A DNA stretch of 32,000 nucleotides from Nonlabens ponticola (lineage in GTDB: Bacteria; Bacteroidota; Bacteroidia; Flavobacteriales; Flavobacteriaceae): NCBI RefSeq assembly GCF_003966335.1, contig NZ_CP034549.1, positions 480,001-512,000 on the forward strand, read 5' to 3'. The position numbers and the translations under genes were made by a program. The notes under the pieces are model-generated. The model saw only the letters and a list, made by a program, of their open reading frames with translations. It was not told where the DNA came from and made no database searches. Shown in pieces: positions 1-31,373 of this stretch (the stretch's first letter is position 1; each line of letters begins with the position of its first letter).

Positions 1-965
1 ATTTCTGGCAACTGCATGAGCTGCAGATTACCTGTTCCTTCTACCACGACTGTTGCATTAAGGCTTTCACCAGCTTCCAACTGTGATCTGGTAACATCTA
101 CATTAAAATCAAACTGACCTACCGCACCTGTAAAACTCGCTGGCCTGCCATCTTGTGGTAAATCCTTTACATTAAGTGTTCTAGCACCAGCCGTGACACG
201 TAATTTTTCAAGAACATTTTGTTGACGGCCAAAGAAACTGCGCCTACCTGAAGGCACTAGCACATTCACATCCATCACCAGTGGTTCCATGGTCACGCGA
301 CCCGTTTTCTGCGGATATAAAATGGCATCACGTAATACAAGATATCGGTAAGGCTCGCCCTTGTAGGTGCCATCACGTACAGGTTCATCGCGTCTATCCT
401 TAGTCAATGACCAGAAGTCTTCATATTTAGGCGTCTCGACATCTGTCCAGCCGCGTATGCCAGTATTGTTTGAGACATATAATTTATAAACGACCCGTAT
501 GGCTTCATTGAGGTAAGGTGATGCGTTAGAAACCTCAGCGACTAGATGGACATTGAGTTCTGGTAGCGGTTGCTGGCTGTCCATTTCTCGCGGTCGCTCA
601 ATAGCTTTGGTCACCTGAATATTGAAAGGATCTGACGTATAAGTTGTGCCTTGATAATCCATGGTAGCACTACCTATGGTCTTAGTACCTGTGCTTTCTG
701 GCGCTAATATGTAAGTATAGGTTTTGGCAAACGAACCTACTCCATTGATATATCGCTGTGAGACGCCAGTCACTGGTCCAGTTGCTACTTTAAAACCTCT
801 AAAATCTGGTGGTGTAAAATTGTCACCATCAGCATTCATCTTGAATTCTACTCGCAGCCGTTCATTGAGTGCGATGTTATCTCGTGTTGCGGTTGCTGTA
901 AACGTTGTTTGCGCAGCGGCCACCGCTGCACTCATCCATAAAAACAAAAAAAGCAGTTGTTTCAT
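1..965 (-). CDS. batD: BatD-like oxygen-tolerance protein, N-terminal ~321 aa (C-terminus lies beyond the window start)
   Basis: This ORF is not in the supplied track because it runs off the window edge. A manual reverse-strand translation from the ATG at 965..963 gives MKQLLFLFLWMSAAVAAAQTTFTATATRDNIALNERLRVEFKMNADGDNF... and stays open to position 1. It has a signal peptide. Its start overlaps the batC stop (TAATG). Its position after batA-batB-batC matches the Bacteroides Bat operon order. Confidence 0.8.
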   Translation of the reverse strand, partial: MKQLLFLFLWMSAAVAAAQTTFTATATRDNIALNERLRVEFKMNADGDNFTPPDFRGFKVATGPVTGVSQRYINGVGSFAKTYTYILAPESTGTKTIGSATMDYQGTTYTSDPFNIQVTKAIERPREMDSQQPLPELNVHLVAEVSNASPYLNEAIRVVYKLYVSNNTGIRGWTDVETPKYEDFWSLTKDRRDEPVRDGTYKGEPYRYLVLRDAILYPQKTGRVTMEPLVMDVNVLVPSGRRSFFGRQQNVLEKLRVTAGARTLNVKDLPQDGRPASFTGAVGQFDFNVDVTRSQLEAGESLNATVVVEGTGNLQLMQLPE

Positions 966-5474: not shown

Positions 5475-6334
5475 CTGCGCTTGAAGTATCCTAAAAGTTT
5501 AGTGGTGTAATTCTCTCTCGTTTCCAGATCGATGGCGCCAGCATCTGCCTTGGTAAAGCTATTCTTGAAGTAAGCAGCGTTTTCTTTGTGAAAGGCGGCA
5601 TACTTAGTTCTCACGCTGCGCGAGCTGGTATTAATGATGCGTTGCTTGCCTGTTTCTTGATCCTTAAATGGCACTAATCCCATGCTGGGCAATTCCTGCT
5701 CTCGCTGGTCATACACGCGCACGCCAGTGACATCGTGCTTGCGACCTATGACTTGCAATGGCTTTTGATAATCGCTGGTCATGAAATCTGACATCACAAA
5801 AACAATAGCTTTTTTCTTGAGCACGCCACCTAGATATTCTAGTGCGTTACCCAAGTTAGTGGTCTTGTTGGATGGTTCAAATTCCAACAGCTCACGAATG
5901 ATGCGCAAGATGTGAAACTTACCTTTTTTAGGCGGTACAAATAATTCTACCTGATCTGAAAAGAGCAGCAAGCCTACCTTATCATTATTCTGCAAAGCGC
6001 TGAATGCCAGCGTTGCGCTGATTTCGGTAATGATCTCACGTTTGAGCTGGTCTTGGGTTCCAAAAAGGGTACTGCCGCTGACATCTGCCACCAGCATGAG
6101 TGTGAGCTCACGTTCTTCTTCAAAAACTTTGACAAACGGCTCTCTAAATCTAGCGGTAACATTCCAATCGATATTGCGCACATCATCGCCGTATTGATAT
6201 TGGCGCACCTCACTAAAAGTCATACCACGACCCTTAAAGGCGCTGTGGTACTCACCTCCAAAAACGGCATCGCTCAACCGCCGAGTCTTGATCTCGATCT
6301 TGCGTACTTTTTTAAGGAGTTCTTTTGTGTCCAA
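5471..6334 (-). CDS. DUF58 domain protein (MoxR-associated, VWA-like)
   Basis: 287-aa ORF with the DUF58-type motif YGDDVRNIDWNVTAR. It lies downstream of the moxR-type ATPase, the canonical MoxR-DUF58-VWA arrangement. Confidence 0.85.
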   Translation of the reverse strand: MDTKELLKKVRKIEIKTRRLSDAVFGGEYHSAFKGRGMTFSEVRQYQYGDDVRNIDWNVTARFREPFVKVFEEERELTLMLVADVSGSTLFGTQDQLKREIITEISATLAFSALQNNDKVGLLLFSDQVELFVPPKKGKFHILRIIRELLEFEPSNKTTNLGNALEYLGGVLKKKAIVFVMSDFMTSDYQKPLQVIGRKHDVTGVRVYDQREQELPSMGLVPFKDQETGKQRIINTSSRSVRTKYAAFHKENAAYFKNSFTKADAGAIDLETRENYTTKLLGYFKRR

Positions 6335-6346
6335 TTTTTTAATCAG

Positions 6347-6375
6347 TTAATGTGGTAATGGGTTAATGTGCTAAT
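6347..6375. repeat. left arm of the 29-bp imperfect inverted repeat flanking the four-helix-bundle gene
   Basis: TTAATGTGGTAATGGGTTAATGTGCTAAT. The reverse complement of 6777..6805 matches at 26/29 positions, with the innermost 14 nt identical. Confidence 0.85.
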
Positions 6376-6734
6376 TACTTTATTGGCGTATTTCTTTTAG
6401 TTGATGCGATTATAGATGATAACAATTTTGCTATTGACGTTCTTTTCTCAAATAATAATTCTGGCGGTGTTGGTAAATGTTGAGACGTTTTACACAGTTG
6501 TAACCAGTAATCTGTTTCAAGACATTCTTTAGAGGCTATCTTTAATTTATGGACAAAATCATTTCTGCTTTCTGCACCTTGTGCTTCATGAATATTGGCT
6601 CCTATGCTTGTACCAGATCTAAATATTTGTGAGGAAAGCTCCCAATTCTTTTGTTCTTTCAATACTTGAACAAATTCAATAATCTCTAATGAAAACTGAA
6701 AACTCAGATCTACGATCGGATTCGTTTTAGACAT
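6375..6734 (-). CDS. four-helix-bundle protein (23S rRNA intervening-sequence protein / Avd-like family)
   Basis: 119-aa ORF. The motifs SIGANIHEAQGAES, FVHKLKIASKECLETDYWLQL match the family signature as I remember it (sIgaNiaEg, flhklkia.kE..Et.yWl). It is AT-rich relative to its neighbours and flanked by inverted repeats. Confidence 0.8.
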   Translation of the reverse strand: MSKTNPIVDLSFQFSLEIIEFVQVLKEQKNWELSSQIFRSGTSIGANIHEAQGAESRNDFVHKLKIASKECLETDYWLQLCKTSQHLPTPPELLFEKRTSIAKLLSSIIASTKRNTPIK

Positions 6735-6776
6735 TTTTAATTATTAAATCTTGGGAAGCAATTCAGAACAAAACAC

Positions 6777-6805
6777 ATTAGCACATTAACCAATTATCGC
6801 ATTAA
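6777..6805. repeat. right arm of the 29-bp imperfect inverted repeat flanking the four-helix-bundle gene
   Basis: ATTAGCACATTAACCAATTATCGCATTAA, which ends 1 nt before the moxR stop codon (6806..6808). Confidence 0.85.
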
Positions 6806-7810
6806 TTAAGGTACTTCAATCGTATTCACGATCTTATTCACGATATCTTCCGTGGTGTAACTTTCTGCCTCGGCTTCATAGGTGATTCCTATACGGTGAC
6901 GCAGGACGTCTAGCACTACCGCGCGCACATCTTCTGGCACGACATAACCGCGGCGCTTGATAAATGCATAGCATTTGGCGGCCTTGGCAAGGTTGATGGA
7001 TCCACGTGGTGATGCGCCAAAACTAATCAGCGGCTTCAAGTCGGCCAGGTTGTATTTTTCTGGGTAACGCGTCGCAAAAATGATGTCGAGAATGTACTTT
7101 TCAATCTTCTCATCCATATAAACCATCTCTACCGCATCTTGCGCACGCAGGATTTGCTCTGGCGTGATTACAGGATTAGGTTCTGGAAATTCCTTCTTGA
7201 GATTGGCGCGCATGATAAATTGCTCGTCTGCGATGGTAGGATAGTCGATGACTGTTTTTAACATAAAACGGTCCATTTGTGCCTCAGGTAACGGATAGGT
7301 TCCTTCTTGATCTACTGGATTTTGAGTGGCCATTACCAGAAATGGTTTCTCCAGTTTGAAAGTCGTGTCGCCTATGGTCACTTGCTTTTCCTGCATGGCT
7401 TCCAGCAGTGCAGATTGTACTTTGGCAGGCGCACGATTGATCTCATCTGCCAGGACAAAATTGGCAAAAATGGGTCCTTTGCGTATGGAAAAATCATTTT
7501 CCTTCATGTTGTAAATCAGCGTTCCTACGACATCTGCTGGCAGCAGGTCTGGTGTAAACTGTATGCGCGAGAAACTACCTTGAACGGCTTTGGAAAGCGT
7601 GGTGATCGCCAGTGTTTTGGCAAGTCCAGGCACACCTTCTAGCAATATGTGACCGCGTCCTAGCAGTCCTATGAGCAATCGATCGATCATGTACTGTTGA
7701 CCCACGATTACCTTATTCATCTCACGTACCAGCTGATCTATAAACGCACTTTCAGCTTGCACCTTATCATTGATACTGGCCACATCTACGGCCGTATGTT
7801 CTTGATTCAT
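6806..7810 (-). CDS. moxR: MoxR-family AAA+ ATPase
   Basis: 334-aa ORF with Walker A GVPGLAKT and Walker B VLADEINRA. The overall MoxR-like sequence includes LLEAMQEKQVTI and ATQNPVDQEGTYPLPEAQMDRF. Confidence 0.95.
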   Translation of the reverse strand: MNQEHTAVDVASINDKVQAESAFIDQLVREMNKVIVGQQYMIDRLLIGLLGRGHILLEGVPGLAKTLAITTLSKAVQGSFSRIQFTPDLLPADVVGTLIYNMKENDFSIRKGPIFANFVLADEINRAPAKVQSALLEAMQEKQVTIGDTTFKLEKPFLVMATQNPVDQEGTYPLPEAQMDRFMLKTVIDYPTIADEQFIMRANLKKEFPEPNPVITPEQILRAQDAVEMVYMDEKIEKYILDIIFATRYPEKYNLADLKPLISFGASPRGSINLAKAAKCYAFIKRRGYVVPEDVRAVVLDVLRHRIGITYEAEAESYTTEDIVNKIVNTIEVP

Positions 7811-7884
7811 AAATAATGATTTTCGACTCTTTTCTTAACTCCTAAAAATAGCTTTTCTTGTTCCAGGCTTCCTTAATATCCTCT

Positions 7885-7892
7885 CAAAAATA
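7885..7892 (-). promoter_or_regulatory. candidate Bacteroidota -7 promoter box (TATTTTTG on the minus strand) for the moxR/Bat operon
   Basis: The plus-strand CAAAAATA is TAnnTTTG on the minus strand, 75-82 nt upstream of the moxR ATG. This is a motif match only. Confidence 0.3.
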
Positions 7893-8064
7893 AAAAGTAG
7901 CCGGTACACTGCAAACTGTCTATTTGTTGCAGTTGGTATAGGTTTGTTACGCTTTGCTCTTTACTCCATTAAAAACTTGGTTAAATAACTCATAGGCACA
8001 CTTGTCCACCTATTAATTATATTCTTTAAAGCACATATTTAACGATGCTGTTTTTTGGGATTAC

Positions 8065-21337: not shown

Positions 21338-21390
21338 GTATCAGATTAAATCGCGGAAGGAACAGCTCTATTTGCATCTAATTTAAGCCC

Positions 21391-22797
21391 ATGAAAGAAG
21401 AGTTACAAATAATTCAAAAATTTCTAAGTGAATTTTCAAAATTAGTATCAACTCAAGCGGATCTAAGTTTCCCCATAGAATTTTATACGGAGTATAAAGG
21501 CCAAATGAAGGTTGTTGATGCTGCATTAATTAAAAACAAAGAGGTACTTGCCATTTTTGAGTTTAAGGCAGGTGTTGTTAAAATCAATCCACAAGATTTT
21601 TGGGACGCAATACCACCAATAAATATCAACTATAAATTCTTAGTTCTTTCTAATGGTTTGGATCACTATGTATTAAATGTTTTTACAAATGCACTTCTTA
21701 GCTTTGATAATTCTGAAGATTTATTAACCCATTTATTAGAACTACCCACTGTAGAAGAAATCAATGAAACAAAGGAAAGTATAGCTTCGATCATCGAAAA
21801 AACAGTCATGGAATTTGAAAAAGAATTTGTTCATCATGATCATCCTCTGTATGAAAAATTGCCTGATTTAGTTGCTCATTTCAAAAAGGAAAAAATTGAA
21901 AGTTCGCTACGATTCGATAAAAACGGTCAGTTCTATCACCTTACTAAAGACATAAGGGATTTAACCAATTTTGAAAATCAATTTTTTCAATTGATCACCG
22001 AGGAATTAGAGGAGTCTGAAACAATCTATAGATACACTACACTTGAAACAATGTTTTCGACTATCAATCACAAGAGTATTCGATTAAATGGTATTCCTGG
22101 AATGAATGATCTTTCTGAAGTTGATTACGTTCAATCGTATCGTGACAAAGGTTTTAAATTGTCTGACTCAGCTATAGACATTGACGAATTAAATAAAAGA
22201 TTTATATTATGTAGTTCATCTTTGGAAGACGACTTGATGCAATGGAGATTGTACGGAGATGATTCTAAAGGAGCCTGTCTAGTTTTCAAGATTAAAAATA
22301 CCTCGAGAATTCCTGGACTGCAATTACGAAAGATTTGTTACGGAATCAAAGTAAATGGAGAAAACTATCATCCTGAAATTGAATTGATAAACAAGATAAT
22401 TAGCGACGTTAAGAAGCAAAAAAAAGAATCCTTTCAATTTAGAGCGTTATCAATTTGGAAGCATTTTTTCAAGTCTTACGAATATCAGCCAGAAAAAGAA
22501 GTGAGATTGTTATTAATTCTGGCTCGTGATAAAACTATTAAAGGAGAAAGTATACTTGAAGAGAAACTTCATTCAATACAAAAAATGTGGTGCTTAACAA
22601 GCTCTCATAAAATCGTTAATCCGTATATCATAATCAATGTTGATGACGATTTATTGCCGATAGAGCTAACCGAGATCGTTCTTGGTAACAAGAGCCCTGA
22701 ACCAGTTACAAATAAGAAGCAGATTGAACAATTACTATATGAAAACAAGTTAGATAACGTTTCAGTAAACATTTCTAAAATTGATAGCTATCGCTGA
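21391..22797 (+). CDS. PD-(D/E)xK-like N-terminal domain fused to a DUF2971 domain (candidate defence-island protein A)
   Basis: 468-aa ORF that is strongly AT-rich. The N-terminus carries VVD43AALIKNKEVLAIFE57FK59 (D...ExK, HsdR-N-like). The DUF2971-like motifs are IYRYTTLETMF...IRLNGIPGMNDLSE (from nt 22024), ILCSSSLEDDLMQWRLYGDDSKGACLVF (nt ~22210-22290) and YQPEKEVRLLL (22492..22506). Confidence 0.7.
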   Translation: MKEELQIIQKFLSEFSKLVSTQADLSFPIEFYTEYKGQMKVVDAALIKNKEVLAIFEFKAGVVKINPQDFWDAIPPININYKFLVLSNGLDHYVLNVFTNALLSFDNSEDLLTHLLELPTVEEINETKESIASIIEKTVMEFEKEFVHHDHPLYEKLPDLVAHFKKEKIESSLRFDKNGQFYHLTKDIRDLTNFENQFFQLITEELEESETIYRYTTLETMFSTINHKSIRLNGIPGMNDLSEVDYVQSYRDKGFKLSDSAIDIDELNKRFILCSSSLEDDLMQWRLYGDDSKGACLVFKIKNTSRIPGLQLRKICYGIKVNGENYHPEIELINKIISDVKKQKKESFQFRALSIWKHFFKSYEYQPEKEVRLLLILARDKTIKGESILEEKLHSIQKMWCLTSSHKIVNPYIIINVDDDLLPIELTEIVLGNKSPEPVTNKKQIEQLLYENKLDNVSVNISKIDSYR

Positions 22798-22866
22798 AAG
22801 CATGTTTTATCAATTTTTTTGTCTTCCAAGAATTGTATTTTGGCCTTAATAACATGCATTTTTAAT

Positions 22867-22874
22867 TATGTTTG
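22867..22874 (+). promoter_or_regulatory. candidate -7 promoter box TATGTTTG upstream of island gene B
   Basis: Matches TAnnTTTG, 55 nt upstream of the ATG at 22929 in the 131-nt A-B spacer. This is a motif match only. Confidence 0.3.
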
Positions 22875-22928
22875 ATTTACCAATTTTTTTCTAAAGGCGT
22901 AAGCCCTGTTTCTATTAAAGGATAAAAT

Positions 22929-24887
22929 ATGCCAAAAATTATTGATGTTGGAGTTGAGCAAGATCATATTGAATCCTTGACTAAGGCGAGCGGAATTACG
23001 GCTATTTCAGAGCTAATATGGAATTCTCTCGATGCAGACGCCACTAAGGTAAAAATAGAATACATTAAAAATAAACTAGGAGGCTTTGAAGAACTGGTAG
23101 TTGAGGACAATGGATTGGGAATTGAATATTCAAAAGCGCAGGATGTCTTTGGTCGATTAGGAGGTTCAGAAAAGAAGATTCAAACGAGTAGCCCAAATGG
23201 ACGCCAGTATCATGGTAAAGAAGGAAAAGGCAGATACAAATCACTGGCATTAGGTGATTTAGTAAAATTCACAAGCGTTTATAAAAATGGTGAGTCTCTA
23301 AAAGAGTTTACTGTAACATTTGACAGAAATAATTTATCACACTCGAACTTCAGCGATTTGAAAACGCTTCCGAAAGGTAGTGTGGAAACAGGTTTCAAAG
23401 TTGAAATAAAAAACATTAACCAAGAAAACGTAATTCAAGCAGTAGATCCGAAGTTCAGGAGAGAAATAGAACAGAAATTCACATCATATTGGATAAACTA
23501 TAATGATTTTGAAATTTATTTCAACGGTAATAAATTAGAATTTGAGTCTTTAATCAAAAACACAGAGGAAAAAGAATTCTTCGTTCAAAATGGTGAATTA
23601 TCATACAGATTCTCCATAAAAGTAATCGAATGGAGCTTTGACATAAGGAAGAGAACTTATTTATGCAATACCAAAGGTATTCCATTTAAAGAATTGAACC
23701 TTGGTATTCGTTCGACTATTCCTATTTCGATTTTCATTCAGTCAGTTTATATTGAAAAATTACATAGAGAAAACCTCATAGATTTAGAAAACTTTGATGA
23801 CATACTCCAAGGAGCTTATGTAGAAGCAAAGAAATTCGCTAGAGAATATGTCAGAAATAGACTTCATTTATATTCCGGAGAATTTATTAAGGAACTGAAA
23901 ACGAAGGGGCTTTATCCATATAAGGAGAATGCAGATTCTATAATTGAAGAAAGTAAAAGACAGGTTTTTGATATAGTTGCGCTTCAGGTAAATGAATATC
24001 TACCCGAATTTGAAAGTCAAAATGATAAGAGCAAAAAATTTACCCTTTCTCTAATTAAGGAAGCTTTGGAAAAAGATTCTCATTCATTACAAAAGATTTT
24101 GACTGAGGTTATTGAATTACCAGATGAAAAAAGAGAAGAATTAGTCGAAATTCTAGAAGAAACATCTTTGTCAAGTGTAATTGATACAATGACAGAAATT
24201 AAAAATAGATTGAGATTTATCAATGGTCTTGAGGAACTAATTTATAATAAAGACCTAAACAAGAATATTTTAGAGCGAAAGCATCTTCATAAAATTTTGG
24301 TGAACGAAACATGGCTATTCGGCGATGAATATACATATGGCGTTGATGACGTTACGCTTAAGAATGTTTTAAAAGCATACTTGAAAAGTTTAGGTAGATC
24401 TGATTTTGAAGAGACTATAAGTAATGACTCGAATAATGATCTGCAAATCATACCTGACGTATGCTTATGGAGGCAATTCCCACAAGGTTCGCCTGGTCAT
24501 AAAACAAATTTGATTATTGAATTGAAAAAGCCAACAAAAGATGCTGGTGTTGAAGAACTGATGCAGATAAAGCTTTATGCCGCTAGAATATCCAACGATA
24601 AGAGATTTCCTAAAGAAAAAACCAAATGGAAATTTCTTTTGATTACTAAAGACATTAAGCCAGACATTGAACCTGAATTAGAACAAACTGGGAGGAAATA
24701 TGGTCATGTTGTTTCAACGGATTTATATGACGTATTCGTTTTAACATGGGGACATATCTTGACCGAGGCAAAAACAAGATATGAATATGTAAAAGATAAA
24801 TTGAATTTGAACTTAATGGATAACCAACATAATTTGGATTATCTCAAATCAAGATACAATGAATATTTACCGAATGAATTGAATTGA
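22929..24887 (+). CDS. GHKL (HATPase_c_3/MORC-like) ATPase fused to a C-terminal Shedu/DUF4263-like PD-(D/E)xK nuclease domain (candidate defence-island protein B)
   Basis: 652-aa ORF, AT-rich. The Bergerat-fold motifs are E28LIWNSLDADA (23010..23042), D60NGLG (23106..23120), and FGRLGGSEK / GKEGKGRYKS. The C-terminus reads ERKHLHKILVNETWLFGDEY...IIPD510VCLW...LIIE531LK533KP...Q546IKLY550 (D 24456, ExK 24519..24527). Confidence 0.7.
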   Translation: MPKIIDVGVEQDHIESLTKASGITAISELIWNSLDADATKVKIEYIKNKLGGFEELVVEDNGLGIEYSKAQDVFGRLGGSEKKIQTSSPNGRQYHGKEGKGRYKSLALGDLVKFTSVYKNGESLKEFTVTFDRNNLSHSNFSDLKTLPKGSVETGFKVEIKNINQENVIQAVDPKFRREIEQKFTSYWINYNDFEIYFNGNKLEFESLIKNTEEKEFFVQNGELSYRFSIKVIEWSFDIRKRTYLCNTKGIPFKELNLGIRSTIPISIFIQSVYIEKLHRENLIDLENFDDILQGAYVEAKKFAREYVRNRLHLYSGEFIKELKTKGLYPYKENADSIIEESKRQVFDIVALQVNEYLPEFESQNDKSKKFTLSLIKEALEKDSHSLQKILTEVIELPDEKREELVEILEETSLSSVIDTMTEIKNRLRFINGLEELIYNKDLNKNILERKHLHKILVNETWLFGDEYTYGVDDVTLKNVLKAYLKSLGRSDFEETISNDSNNDLQIIPDVCLWRQFPQGSPGHKTNLIIELKKPTKDAGVEELMQIKLYAARISNDKRFPKEKTKWKFLLITKDIKPDIEPELEQTGRKYGHVVSTDLYDVFVLTWGHILTEAKTRYEYVKDKLNLNLMDNQHNLDYLKSRYNEYLPNELN

Positions 24888-25053
24888 AGAAAAGTTAGGA
24901 TAAAAGTTATTTAATGCGAATTCAAAAATGATTACACAGAAAATCAGACTGTATAAAAATAAAATACTCACAACCCAACCTCAATCCTATTTTTATGTGA
25001 ACGCTTCTAGCTAATAGCTGTAAGTCAGCGATATTGCTGTAAAATCAAATATC

Positions 25054-29408: not shown

Positions 29409-31373
29409 ATGCAAAGAGCTTATTATTCAAAATCACTTACCAAATTTATATTAGAAAGCGAATCCTCCATTTTGGGTGAGTTATCCTCAAAACATGCCAA
29501 CAGGCAATTGGACGAGCTGCAAATCAATGCATGGAAATCCCAAATTAAAATACTAAGAGAGAAGGTTAATGGTCAAAAGGGAAAAATCTATTTTGAGTTT
29601 GCCATACCACGCATGGGTAAACGCGTTGATAATATCATAATCATTCACGATACTATTTTCATAGTAGAGTTTAAAGTGAATGATAGAATCTATTCTAAGA
29701 ATGCTATCGAGCAAGCGATAGATTACACGATAGACCTTAAGAATTTTCATGAAGGCAGTCATAAAGCTAAACTTATACCTGTTGTTGTATCCACTAAAGC
29801 GAAAAATTGGCCTGAGAACACTGATGCTGTTAAACACTTTCACACAGCCGCAAAAGCTAATCAAAGTAATCTCAAACAAGTACTAGATCAATACATTGAA
29901 GTAAGCAATGAACCGATCAACATTGAGAATTGGGAAAACTCTCTTTACAAACCAACTCCAACTATAGTTCAAGCAGCACAAGCTCTATACAAAGGCCACA
30001 ACGTTGAAGAAATTACAAGGTCCGACTCGGGAGCGATCAATTTATCAAAAACGGCTGATTGCATTAACGACATCATCCATAATTCAAAAAACAATAAACT
30101 AAAATCTATTTGTTTTGTAACTGGCGTCCCAGGAGCTGGAAAAACTCTTGCTGGACTTAATGTGGCTGTTGACAGAATGAATACGGACAAAGATGAACAT
30201 GCTGTTTTCCTTTCTGGTAACGGTCCTCTTGTAGAGGTATTAAGAGAAGCACTTACAAGAGACGAAGTTGCGACTGAAAAATTGAGAGGAAACAAATTGA
30301 CTAAAAAGAAGGCAGCGATTAAAGCCAATTCTTTTATTCAAAACATTCATCATTTTAGAGATGATAACCTGCTTTCAAATAAAGCTCCGGTAGAAAGGGT
30401 TGTAGTTTTTGATGAGGCACAACGTGCCTGGACAAAGCATCAAACCAGCTCATTTATGCGACGCAAAAAGGGAAAAGACGATTTTGACATGTCTGAACCA
30501 GAATTTTTAATAAGTGTAATGGATCGACATACAGATTGGTGTACAATTGTTTGCCTTATAGGTGGTGGTCAAGAAATCAATACAGGCGAAGCAGGTCTTG
30601 AAGAATGGATTAAATCATTAGCACGGAGCTTTCCGGATTGGCAAATTCACTTTTCTACACCGATACTTACGCAATCTAATTATCTTAAATCTGAAGCGTC
30701 AAAGAGCTTTCTAGTGAAAAATGGTCATCAAACACGAGACTTGCATTTGTCTGTCTCGATTAGATCATTTCGTTCAGAGAAATTATCAAGGTTTATTCAT
30801 GAGATGCTGGAACTCAATTTGAGTCACGCTCAAAATTTGTTCAAGGAAATTAAAAATGACTATCCGATAGTAATCACAAGAGATCTTGAAAAAGCGAAGA
30901 AATGGATGAAATCAAAAGCCTTGGGAACAGAGCGAATTGGATTAGTTGCCTCTTCTGGAGCTCGTAGATTGCGACCCAAAGGAATAGATGTGAAAAACGA
31001 AATCTCTGCCTCAAATTGGTTTTTAAATGACAGCACTGATATCAGATCATCATATTTTTTAGAAGATGTTGCTACCGAGTTCGATATTCAAGGGCTTGAA
31101 ATTGATTGGTGTTGCGTCGCATGGGGCGCTAACTTTTATCTTAAAGATTCAGAATGACAATATCAGAACCTCAAGGGAACTAAATGGCAAAACATCAATA
31201 AAACAGAACTTCAAGAATATTTAAAAAACACCTATCGAGTCCTTTTAACTAGAGCAAGACAAGGAATGATCATTTACATTCCAGAAGGTGATGTTTCTGA
31301 CATTACAAGGGCGGACGAATTTTATGATGAAACTTTTGATTACTTCAAGTCAGTAGGAGTTTTTGAAATATAA
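29409..31373 (+). pseudogene. DUF2075-type nuclease-helicase (Schlafen-like/COG3410 ATPase) interrupted by an in-frame TGA at 31155..31157
   Basis: The 582-aa ORF carries a PD-(D/E)xK-like motif (RVDNIIIIHDTIFIVEFK), Walker A GVPGAGKT (30123..30146) and Walker B VVVFDEAQ (DE at 30411..30416). The same frame continues after the TGA for 72 codons (QYQNLKGTKWQN...YRVLLTRARQGMIIYIP...VGVFEI*) to the TAA at 31371..31373. That stretch contains the helicase C-terminal LTRAR motif. Confidence 0.8.

Follow-up and report, generated by a model that had tools for sequence, protein, structure and literature searches.

The analysed window, a stretch of 32,000 nucleotides from Nonlabens ponticola (contig NZ_CP034549.1, positions 480,001 to 512,000), contains a low-GC island (GC of 0.319, compared with 0.432 to its left and 0.436 to its right) that carries the genes for two proteins, referred to here as Protein A and Protein B (Table 1). 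The island is flanked by a housekeeping-looking gene of 956 aa on one side and by a region toward the succinate dehydrogenase genes on the other. No tRNA genes were found at its boundaries and no convincing direct or inverted repeats around it, and scans for sigma-70 promoters and terminators, which are ill-suited to Bacteroidota, returned only background-level signals. The open reading frame of Protein B is genuine, as its product matches the N. ponticola protein WP_126445163.1 with 100% identity. Proteins of this type are labelled “ATP-binding protein” in RefSeq, and their Pfam coverage is limited to the first 160 residues. Protein B combines in a single polypeptide a GHKL ATPase domain, a middle domain, a helical arm, and a nuclease domain of the PD-(D/E)xK type.

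Table 1. Features of the low-GC island and of Protein B (nucleotide positions within the window; residue numbers refer to Protein B)
Feature	Residues	Nucleotides	Strand	Details or basis
Low-GC island with the genes for Proteins A and B		21338..25053	.	GC 0.319
Protein A		21391-22797	same as Protein B	inside the low-GC island
Protein B, complete ORF		22929..24887	+	652 aa plus stop; ORF call
GHKL (Bergerat-fold) ATPase domain	1-172	22929..23444	+	Pfam, motifs, Foldseek
GHKL motif I	E28/N32/D35 (E28LIWN32SLD35A36)	23010-23033	+	codons checked
GHKL motif II	D60xGxG64 (D60NGLG64)	23106-23120	+	codons checked
GHKL motif III, lid	G96xxG99xG101R102	23214-23234	+	codons checked
GHKL motif IV	T154-G155	23388-23393	+	codons checked
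Predicted GHKL-associated middle (S5/transducer-like) domain	about 173-290	23445..23798	+	AF2, Foldseek, hhalign
Predicted helical arm	about 291-445	23799..24263	+	AF2 helices, conservation
PD-(D/E)xK nuclease domain	about 446-652	24264..24884	+	AF2, conservation, Foldseek
Nuclease motif I	E449	24273-24275	+	helix start in model
Lead-in	W462-x-F464-G465	24312-24323	+	within H452LHKILVNETWLFGDEY468
Nuclease motif II	D510	24456-24458	+	precedes strand in model
Nuclease motif III	E531-x-K533 (E531-L-K533)	24519-24527	+	strand end in model
Nuclease motif IV	Q546xxxY550 (Q546IKLY550)	24564-24578	+	in next helix in model

The N-terminal region, described previously as a GHKL ATPase, is indeed one. 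The Pfam HATPase_c_3 domain is recognized at aa 24-159 with an E value of 5.7e-20 (72.2 bits, the cut-off being 25) and in each of the 74 relatives, 28-53% identical to Protein B, that were used for the analysis of conservation (E values of about 1e-20). All four GHKL motifs are found in the proper order and are invariant or nearly so in these relatives, including the fully invariant E28, N32, D35, D60, G62, G96, G99, G101, and R102; two Gly-rich segments, G75RLGGSEK82 and G96KEGKGRYKS105, are also present. The motifs cited in the preliminary description are located at the residues given there, and their match is far above chance, except that motif I (ExxxNxxDA), whose span had been extended to A38, actually covers E28-A36, with A38 being the second Ala of a DADA sequence. 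In Foldseek searches, the model of the GHKL and middle domains matched TRAP1, MORC2/3/4, the LN40 fragment of MutL, and topoisomerase VI-B with E values of about 1e-13 to 1e-10. The catalytic Glu is replaced by Gln in three representatives of the family; ATP hydrolysis may not be required in every one of its members.

The region between the two catalytic domains, which had been described as a helical linker of ∼260 aa (aa 170-430), is helical only in its second part. Its first part, aa about 173-290, is beta-rich in the AlphaFold2 (AF2) model, with six predicted strands (residues 195-198, 209-221, 224-235, 242-246, 252-256, and 266-272; pLDDT of about 83-92). This segment is the middle (transducer) domain associated with GHKL ATPases, since the Foldseek alignments, 320 to 430 columns long, extend over the N-terminal and middle regions of TRAP1/Hsp90, MORC2/3/4, and MutL LN40. 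It contains an invariant Trp235 and a conserved basic residue at the position of Lys241. The predicted helical arm (helices 291-325, 338-357, 366-382, 384-395, 399-411, and 413-439) was modelled with lower confidence (pLDDT of 55-83) and contains the nearly invariant Tyr329-Pro330 and Phe347. In this model, it is the arm that serves as the true linker joining the ATPase module to the nuclease.

The C-terminal domain carries a complete set of PD-(D/E)xK motifs with the QxxxY tail, as had been proposed. The residues E449, W462, D510, E531, K533, and Q546 are invariant in the 74 relatives, and Y550, F464, and G465 are conserved in at least 90% of them; the core set (E449, D510, E531-x-K533, and Q546xxxY550) shows little or no variation among relatives sharing 25-54% identity. 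Because the full-length AF2 model had low confidence at the nuclease core (pLDDT of 43-54 at aa 470-530), the domain was remodelled with a deeper alignment. The resulting model of aa 425-652 (pLDDT of 90.6) places the motifs on the expected elements of the canonical alpha-beta-beta-beta-alpha fold. The best Foldseek matches of this domain are all PD-(D/E)xK enzymes, namely MspJI, FokI, AF1548, Cap4, McrC, and EndoMS, and are all weak, with an E value of 3.7e-3 at best (MspJI) and of 0.15 for EndoMS. Relatives of Protein B match the Pfam families HSDR_N_2, VRR_NUC, and SduA_C in this region. Sequence-profile searches of the PDB retrieved no chains related to the Protein B family.

The preliminary description went further and assigned this domain to the Shedu (DUF4263) nucleases. 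The generic part of that assignment stands: motifs I to IV (E, D, ExK, and Q), a preceding helical linker, and an N-terminal region are all present, although these motifs are common to the entire clan. The direct evidence for a specific Shedu/DUF4263 assignment is weak. The Pfam SduA_C domain (DUF4263, PF14082) does not match Protein B at E values of up to 1 and is found in just 2 of the 74 relatives (best E value of 0.024), compared with 39 of the 74 for HSDR_N_2, and in 1 of 31 relatives in a separate scan. As a control, SduA_C matched none of 40 members of the VcSduA family, published as “Shedu” (see below). The PADLOC SduA model PDLC00401 yields a weak match to Protein B (E value of 0.039) that covers only aa 373-468, mostly the helical arm; it matches 10 of the 74 relatives (best E value of 2e-4), 2 of 31 relatives when the nuclease core alone is scanned, and none of the 40 VcSduA family members. 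PADLOC assigned Protein B to no known system above noise. In a structural comparison of the kind that the preliminary description had suggested as a check, no SduA structures were found among the best 50 Foldseek PDB matches of the nuclease domain, and the family profiles matched no SduA chains in the PDB at E values of up to 10.

Proteins with this architecture form a very large family. When the C-terminal domain (aa 382-652) was used as the query, 1,070 clusters were recovered at the 50% identity level. Of the 150 best clusters, almost all consist of proteins of 640-700 aa with the same layout as Protein B, and in none of the 150 was this type of nuclease seen together with another N-terminal sensor. 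The possibility that the nuclease core is reused in combination with different sensors was considered and rejected: the short “homologues” (220-460 aa) are mostly fragments, several of which begin at an internal Met residue (e.g., “MYLCD” at family position 243). The phyletic distribution of the family is patchy, and 57 plasmid records from many phyla carry members of it. Five other loci, encoding homologues with 64-90% identity to Protein B, were compared with the N. ponticola locus with respect to neighbouring called genes that had a Pfam hit. In Maribacter, the gene lies within an integrative element next to Gabija; in Christiangramia, it adjoins genes for AIPR, a resolvase, and a Type ISP restriction enzyme; in Pedobacter, it is found next to TraG/DUF5712 mobilization genes; and in a Bacteroidota metagenome-assembled genome, it is located next to a mer operon. 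The neighbours differ everywhere, and no conserved partner gene was detected at the six loci.

This domain architecture has been described before, under two names. In 2008, Iyer, Abhiman, and Aravind defined paraMORC3 as a GHKL plus S5 module followed by a conserved C-terminal restriction endonuclease (RE)-fold domain with an E-D-ExK signature and RecB-like affinities; the nuclease-bearing paraMORC3 genes were found mainly in Bacteroidetes and Proteobacteria as laterally mobile, standalone genes without a conserved neighbourhood (PMC2292703). This definition fits Protein B, as judged from the published description rather than from the 2008 sequences. The beta-rich middle domain directly follows the GHKL domain, as in the MORC/paraMORC-type module; the signature of the RE-fold domain is formed by E449, D510, and E531-x-K533; and the gene is a standalone one in mobile surroundings, its lack of a partner being in agreement with the 2008 report. 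A MORC-specific S5 motif, GhXhhpXXRhl, separates true MORCs from paraMORCs (PMC2292703). More recently, Gu et al., whose set comprises 7,687 proteins, catalogued those containing HATPase_c_3, N24, and DUF4263 as type 1D Shedu (10.1101/2023.08.10.552793). The cataloguing of type 1D Shedu dates from 2023/2025. Adams et al. (2025) tested one GHKL-containing “type I-D Shedu,” VcSduA from the VSP-II island of the Vibrio cholerae WASA lineage, and found that it protects against phages, that E27A and K557A substitutions each abolish the defence, and that the protein is predicted to be a dimer; these authors equate paraMORC3 with VcSduA-like proteins (PMC12137116). Protein B is therefore an uncharacterized member of an already described single-gene design. 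An ATPase in the sensor position of Shedu is thus already known from the literature, as paraMORC3, type 1D Shedu, and VcSduA, and Protein B does not represent a novel type of system; a previously characterized architecture had been named in the preliminary description as grounds for refuting its proposal, and that is what was found. The accompanying idea of ATP-gated nuclease activation fares better and agrees with the effects of the two VcSduA substitutions.

The similarity between Protein B and VcSduA becomes apparent only at the level of family profiles: BLASTP aligns just the GHKL motifs of the two proteins (E value of 0.014), whereas an hhalign comparison of the two families yields a probability of 97.4% and an E value of 1.3e-11 over 549 collinear columns with 18% identity, with the upstream Glu, the Asp, ExK, and QxxxY all in register. 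When the segments are compared separately, the hhalign probabilities are 94% for the GHKL domain, 88.8% for the middle domain (E value of 2.5e-6), 9.5% for the helical region, and 65% for the nuclease (E value of 6e-5), and each off-diagonal pairing scores 2.5% or less. The Protein B family is a remote homologue of the VcSduA family over its whole length, yet a separate sister clade without a characterized member. The list of 543 hits to the VcSduA model published by Adams et al. includes N. ulvanivorans as the sole Nonlabens, although the database they searched may have omitted the N. ponticola genome. Sequence-profile searches revealed no solved structures of VcSduA family relatives.

Taken together, Protein B is probably an ATP-dependent DNA endonuclease of the paraMORC3 or GHKL-type (“type 1D”) Shedu kind that acts without a partner gene and was acquired by horizontal transfer. 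Its most likely role is to protect the host from phages or other mobile DNA; such a function for this clade is suggested by its remote relationship to VcSduA and by its mobile and defence-associated surroundings. In the proposed mechanism, the GHKL and middle (transducer) domains would bind ATP and dimerize to form a clamp similar to those of MutL, MORC, Hsp90, and topoisomerase VI-B, and the helical arm would pass the ATP-driven closure and the hydrolysis cycle on to the C-terminal PD-(D/E)xK domains, in which E449, D510, E531, K533, and Q546/Y550 are predicted to form the active site. The nuclease would become competent for cutting DNA only once the two halves have met on the substrate, so that both the ATPase and the nuclease activities would be needed. 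Both the dimerization and the link between ATP and cleavage are extrapolated from other GHKL enzymes because no relative with a solved structure turned up in the sequence-profile searches.

A further proposal is that the Protein B clade differs in function from canonical Shedu as well as from VcSduA and would recognize its targets through ATP-driven DNA clamping or loop capture similar to that of MORC or MutL, instead of sensing DNA ends as Shedu does. The clade pairs a canonical MutL/MORC-type clamp with a nuclease that appears closer to the HsdR N-terminal or RecB type than to DUF4263. A recognition mode of its own is conceivable because the clade is large, its nuclease is HsdR/RecB-like, and no other sensor is seen among the best 150 relatives, but this remains a tentative and rather doubtful proposition.

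Alternatively, Protein B could be an abortive-infection or toxin-type effector that, once triggered, degrades the DNA of the host along with that of the invader. Shedu nuclease domains become toxic once they are separated from their N-terminal regulators (10.1101/2023.08.10.552793; 10.1101/2023.08.10.552762), an abortive action has been proposed for a Type 1B Shedu (PD-T4-8) and for KELShedu, and the sequence of Protein B gives no sign of how self DNA would be spared. However, VcSduA, the sole GHKL-type relative tested so far, protects its host at all multiplicities of infection without killing it (PMC12137116), and the Shedu system of Bacillus cereus is likewise non-abortive (10.1101/2023.08.10.552793), which makes such a role unlikely.

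It is quite unlikely that Protein B is instead a restriction endonuclease of the BbrUII/HgiDII type, which contains a GHKL domain, and that it is specific for a certain site or modification and works with a methyltransferase encoded elsewhere. These Type II enzymes are also defence nucleases that bear an ATPase domain, and their N-terminal GHKL domains are similar to that of Protein B: the NCBIfam model NF050001 of the BbrUII/HgiDII family matches aa 26-206 with an E value of 3.8e-15, and the PADLOC REase_II models PDLC03419 and PDLC03485 match Protein B (E values of about 1e-6) as well as 49 and 41 of the 74 relatives, respectively. In addition, paraMORCs in general were linked to restriction-modification operons in the 2008 analysis (PMC2292703). 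Nevertheless, these matches are confined to the GHKL region, past which no similarity is seen, and the NF050001 score of 55.4 bits compares with a curated cut-off of 550. No adjoining methyltransferase gene was seen among the window ORFs inspected or among the neighbours with a Pfam hit at the five other loci, and for the nuclease-bearing paraMORC3 genes, which stand alone, Iyer and colleagues found no matching solo restriction-modification system (PMC2292703).

A two-gene system, in which Protein A (with a PD-(D/E)xK-like N terminus followed by DUF2971) would act as the sensor or partner of Protein B, is very unlikely. The two genes share a strand and a single low-GC island and are just 131 bp apart, and Protein A matches DUF2971 (E value of 4e-6, above the cut-off) and, weakly, HSDR_N_2 and the PADLOC model PDC-S31. 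The gap, however, leaves room for a promoter of Protein B's own, and neither DUF2971 nor Protein A-like neighbours occur at any of the five other loci. Finally, a housekeeping role in DNA repair, as a MutL-like mismatch or recombination nuclease, is highly improbable: MutL is the nearest PDB sequence (E value of 2.2e-4), NCBIfam models of MutL and topoisomerase VI-B match the first 80-160 or so residues, and EndoMS/NucS is among the weak fold matches, but the MutL-type matches are limited to the GHKL motifs and fall far below the family cut-offs, the C-terminal domain of Protein B is not the MutL endonuclease/dimerization domain, and the low-GC island, the patchy spread, and the presence on plasmids and mobile elements all speak against a repair function.

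GHKL-nuclease fusions are widespread, and genetic data are available for a single distant relative, VcSduA. With its most canonical ATPase domain, the Protein B clade would be a sensible choice for biochemical work and cryo-electron microscopy and, should its mode of action prove distinct, could provide the first tractable prokaryotic model of a MORC-like clamp that licenses a nuclease. For annotation purposes, the domain layout described here goes beyond the current RefSeq label.

Among known systems, the GHKL-plus-transducer modules of MutL, MORC, Hsp90 (TRAP1), and topoisomerase VI-B are the best structural matches of Protein B and share with it the Bergerat fold, all the ATP-binding motifs, and the subsequent middle domain. 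This likeness is restricted to roughly the N-terminal 290 residues, the C-terminal halves being unrelated, and none of those proteins has a PD-(D/E)xK domain in cis. Canonical Shedu SduA proteins, such as those from B. cereus B4264 and Escherichia coli, are similar to Protein B in being single-gene systems with a common layout of N-terminal regulation, a helical linker, and C-terminal PD-(D/E)xK motifs I to IV. However, they are only about 380-410 aa long, lack an ATPase, and form tetramers, whereas the GHKL type is a predicted dimer (PMC12137116), and the spacing between the motif Lys and Gln residues is 29 residues in B. cereus Shedu as opposed to 13 in Protein B. A close parallel is VcSduA, likewise encoded by a single standalone gene, which is 673 aa long compared with 652 aa and has an identical order of GHKL, middle, helical, and PD-(D/E)xK regions; its catalytic residues E27 and E555-x-K557 correspond to E28 and E531-x-K533 of Protein B, with the upstream Glu, the Asp, and QxxxY found in both. 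The two families nevertheless differ in their ATPase domains: in the VcSduA family, the motif I context is divergent (P-x-x-E-A-x-x-N-S) and Pfam barely recognizes the GHKL domain (13 of 40 proteins, best E value of 0.004), whereas the Protein B family has a canonical HATPase_c_3 domain in all of its sampled members.

Protein B, the product of the Nonlabens ponticola gene under study, is identical to WP_126445163.1/AZQ43092.1, where the database label is just "ATP-binding protein," and carries, at the same residues, every motif that the preliminary description had assigned to it (see table). The HATPase_c_3 profile of Pfam matches its N-terminal region with 72 bits (cut-off, 25; E=5.7e-20). 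Among 74 full-length relatives (28 to 53% identity), residues E28, N32, D35, D60, G62, G96, G99, G101, and R102, as well as W235, E449, W462, D510, E531, K533, and Q546, are invariant, and conservation is 90% or more at Y550, F464, and G465; this invariance and the HATPase_c_3 match argue that the motifs are not chance matches. In three aligned relatives (P0150, P0156, and P0208), the otherwise invariant catalytic Glu of motif I, equivalent to E28, is replaced by Gln. Such E-to-Q variants of GHKL ATPases serve as an experimental means of trapping the ATP-bound state.

Features of Protein B (aa) and of the surrounding genes (nt, positions in the window)
Feature	Position	Strand	Description
Low-GC island	nt 21338-25053		GC 0.319 vs ~0.43 in flanks; holds genes for Proteins A and B
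Protein A	nt 21391-22797	+	468 aa
Protein B	nt 22929-24887	+	652 aa
582-aa protein	nt 29409-31157	+	PADLOC candidate PDC-S41
Short other-frame ORFs	nt 31066-31224, 31266-31373
HATPase_c_3 match	aa 24-159
ATPase motif I	aa 28-36		E28LIWN32SLD35A36
ATPase motif II	aa 60-64		D60NGLG64
Gly-rich segment	aa 75-82		G75RLGGSEK82
Gly-rich lid	aa 96-105		G96KEGKGRYKS105
Middle domain	aa ~173-290		beta-rich, GHKL-associated (S5/transducer)
Helical arm	aa ~291-445
PADLOC SduA match	aa 373-468		helical lead-in up to WLFGDEY
Lead-in to nuclease core	aa 452-468		H452LHKILVNETWLFGDEY468
PD-(D/E)xK acidic residue	aa 510		D510
PD-(D/E)xK ExK motif	aa 531-533		E531-L-K533
QxxxY motif	aa 546-550		Q546IKLY550

In the full-length AlphaFold2 model (pLDDT 76.5), the nuclease core is poorly modelled; the best Foldseek matches of this model in the PDB are TRAP1/Hsp90, MORC2/3/4, MutL LN40, and Topo VI-B (E=5e-13 to 1e-10), in alignments of 320 to 430 columns, which must then take in the domain that follows the ATPase and not the ATPase alone. 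Since the model places six strands at aa 195 to 272, the first part of what had been described as a 260-aa helical linker is a beta-rich middle domain, and only the remainder belongs to the helical arm proper. Remodelling of the nuclease region (aa 425-652) with 120 diverse relatives raised the pLDDT to 90.6. In this model, E449 lies at a helix start, D510 immediately ahead of a strand, E531 and K533 at the end of the following strand, and Q546 and Y550 in the helix after it, so that the motif residues are predicted to occupy canonical PD-(D/E)xK elements. The two domains originally proposed, a GHKL ATPase and a PD-(D/E)xK nuclease, are thus borne out.

By predicted fold and motifs, the C-terminal domain is certainly a PD-(D/E)xK nuclease; its family membership is less clear. 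Pfam gives no match at E<=1 in this region of Protein B, and in the 74 relatives it detects HSDR_N_2 in 39 (best E=4e-5), VRR_NUC in 7, and SduA_C in 2 (best E=0.024). The PADLOC SduA model matches Protein B at E=0.039, with the catalytic core outside the match; it also matches 10 of the 74 relatives (best E=2e-4) and, on a scan restricted to the nuclease core, 2 of 31. Foldseek matches of the aa 425-652 model are weak, none reaching E<=1e-3 (MspJI, FokI, AF1548, Cap4, McrC, EndoMS, LmuA, and HamA), and the top 50 contain no SduA entry; the library, with an April 2026 cut-off, presumably includes such entries (8PS5 and others). No sequence in the PDB is matched at E<=10 by profiles of the Protein B family. 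From the ExK Lys to the motif IV Gln, Protein B has a spacing of 13 residues, versus 29 in the Bacillus cereus Shedu (K266 to Q295). Taken together, these results make the Shedu signal faint but recurrent, and short of family membership: the original reading of the protein agrees with the published classification, but the Shedu link is weak in direct tests.

Inspection of the island found no tRNA gene, no convincing flanking repeats, and no integrase among the ORFs examined. At each of five loci encoding homologues with 64 to 90% identity, the neighbors differ: integrase, TraG, and Gabija in Maribacter; AIPR, a resolvase, and a Type ISP restriction enzyme in Christiangramia; mobilization genes in Pedobacter; an integrase and hypothetical genes on a metagenome contig; and a mer operon in a Bacteroidota MAG. 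The Maribacter litoralis homologue (88% identity; positions 6001-7971 of locus L001) sits in an integrative mobilizable element with an integrase, a DUF5712 relaxase-like gene, and a TraG coupling protein, and directly adjoins a Gabija pair (OLD-like TOPRIM ATPase and UvrD helicase) and a Schlafen/AlbA_2-HATPase_c_4 gene. Full-length relatives (26 to 33% identity) occur in 57 plasmid records, including those of Phaeobacter, Sinorhizobium, Streptomyces, Salmonella, and Deinococcus. Because neighbors vary and no methyltransferase or Protein-A-like gene recurs at the loci examined, Protein B is a mobile gene of the defence-island type that stands alone. Used as a query, the C-terminal domain yielded 1070 clusters (50% identity); among the best 150, nearly all share the layout of Protein B at a length of 640 to 700 aa, and shorter hits are mostly fragments. 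Several putative homologues of 370 to 450 aa (P0164, P0183, P0206, etc.) have no ATPase and start at the internal Met of the conserved YLC(N/D) motif (family position ~243); decay of the gene or a gene call cut short may account for them, and such nuclease-only remnants, if expressed, could be toxic.

The N-terminus of Protein A resembles a PD-(D/E)xK domain (HSDR_N_2, E=7.6e-5, just under the cut-off), its residues 284-373 match DUF2971 above the cut-off (E=4e-6), and there are weak PADLOC PDC-S31 matches. Protein A is absent beside the Protein B homologues at the other loci examined and is therefore probably an independent defence-candidate gene. Elsewhere in the window, the 582-aa protein matches PDC-S41 (E=3.9e-252) and Pfam SLFN-g3_helicase (E=8e-72) and has a NERD-like N-terminus; the match covers model positions 1-579 of 657, short other-frame ORFs follow, and the gene may be frameshifted.

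The architecture of Protein B is already known from the literature, which includes experiments on a relative; the preliminary description had itself named such prior characterization as grounds for refutation. ParaMORC3 proteins, prevalent in Proteobacteria and Bacteroidetes, were defined by a GHKL+S5 module and a conserved C-terminal RE-fold domain with E-D-ExK motifs, the nuclease-bearing members being standalone genes (Iyer, Abhiman & Aravind 2008; PMC2292703); every point of this definition fits Protein B. Among 7,687 DUF4263 proteins gathered by PSI-BLAST, Gu et al. (bioRxiv 10.1101/2023.08.10.552793; Mol Cell 2025) described type 1D Shedu, in which "HATPase_c_3" is joined to an "N24" middle domain, a relative of the middle domains found in Hsp90, MORC, and topoisomerases. 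Adams et al. (Nat Microbiol 2025; PMC12137116), who equate such proteins with paraMORC3 and type I-D Shedu, tested the GHKL+"DUF4263" protein VcSduA of Vibrio cholerae: E27A and K557A each abolished defence, protection was non-abortive, and the predicted oligomer was a dimer, not a tetramer.

The best-supported model of Protein B action is a four-step ATP clamp, in which the GHKL and middle modules would bind ATP and dimerize, the helical arm would couple clamp closure to two PD-(D/E)xK domains, DNA cleavage would be confined to the ATP-engaged state, and defence, the putative role of the clade, would need both activities; the nature of the trigger is likewise inferred. Less well supported are an abortive effector, to be set beside the non-abortive protection by VcSduA, and a MutL-like repair protein. 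A two-gene system formed with Protein A would share the island, but this pairing is not conserved. For the remaining rival, a restriction enzyme like BbrUII/HgiDII, similarity is confined to the GHKL region (55 bits versus a cut-off of 550).

The relationship to VcSduA, barely visible pairwise, is clear at the profile level. BLASTP of Protein B against P0391, a VcSduA family member, aligns the GHKL motifs alone (E=0.014, 24% identity). Full-length members of that family were retrieved with the first ~400 residues of VcSduA, taken from the preprint supplementary table; hhalign of the two families gave 549 collinear columns (97.4% probability, E=1.3e-11, 18% identity), with the upstream Glu, Asp, ExK, and QxxxY all in register. 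Like segments paired at 94% (GHKL), 89% (middle), 9.5% (helical), and 65% (nuclease, E=6e-5), and off-diagonal pairings at no more than 2.5%, so that the two families are sister clades of one ancestral architecture, yet separate families. Protein B sits in a large sister clade without a characterized member or a solved relative structure detectable by sequence profile. N. ponticola is not among the 543 published VcSduA hits, which list N. ulvanivorans, and the motif I context common to the listed proteins differs from that of Protein B. As a control, current SduA_C (Pfam) and SduA (PADLOC) models each matched 0 of 40 VcSduA family members, whose HATPase matches are only marginal, so that the Protein B family is nearer to both models than VcSduA, which the literature names Shedu. 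Since it is also the one of the two in which Pfam sees HATPase_c_3, it may be the very group catalogued by Gu et al. What underlies the "Shedu" label of GHKL-nuclease fusions is inference, iterative or structural, rather than the family HMMs.
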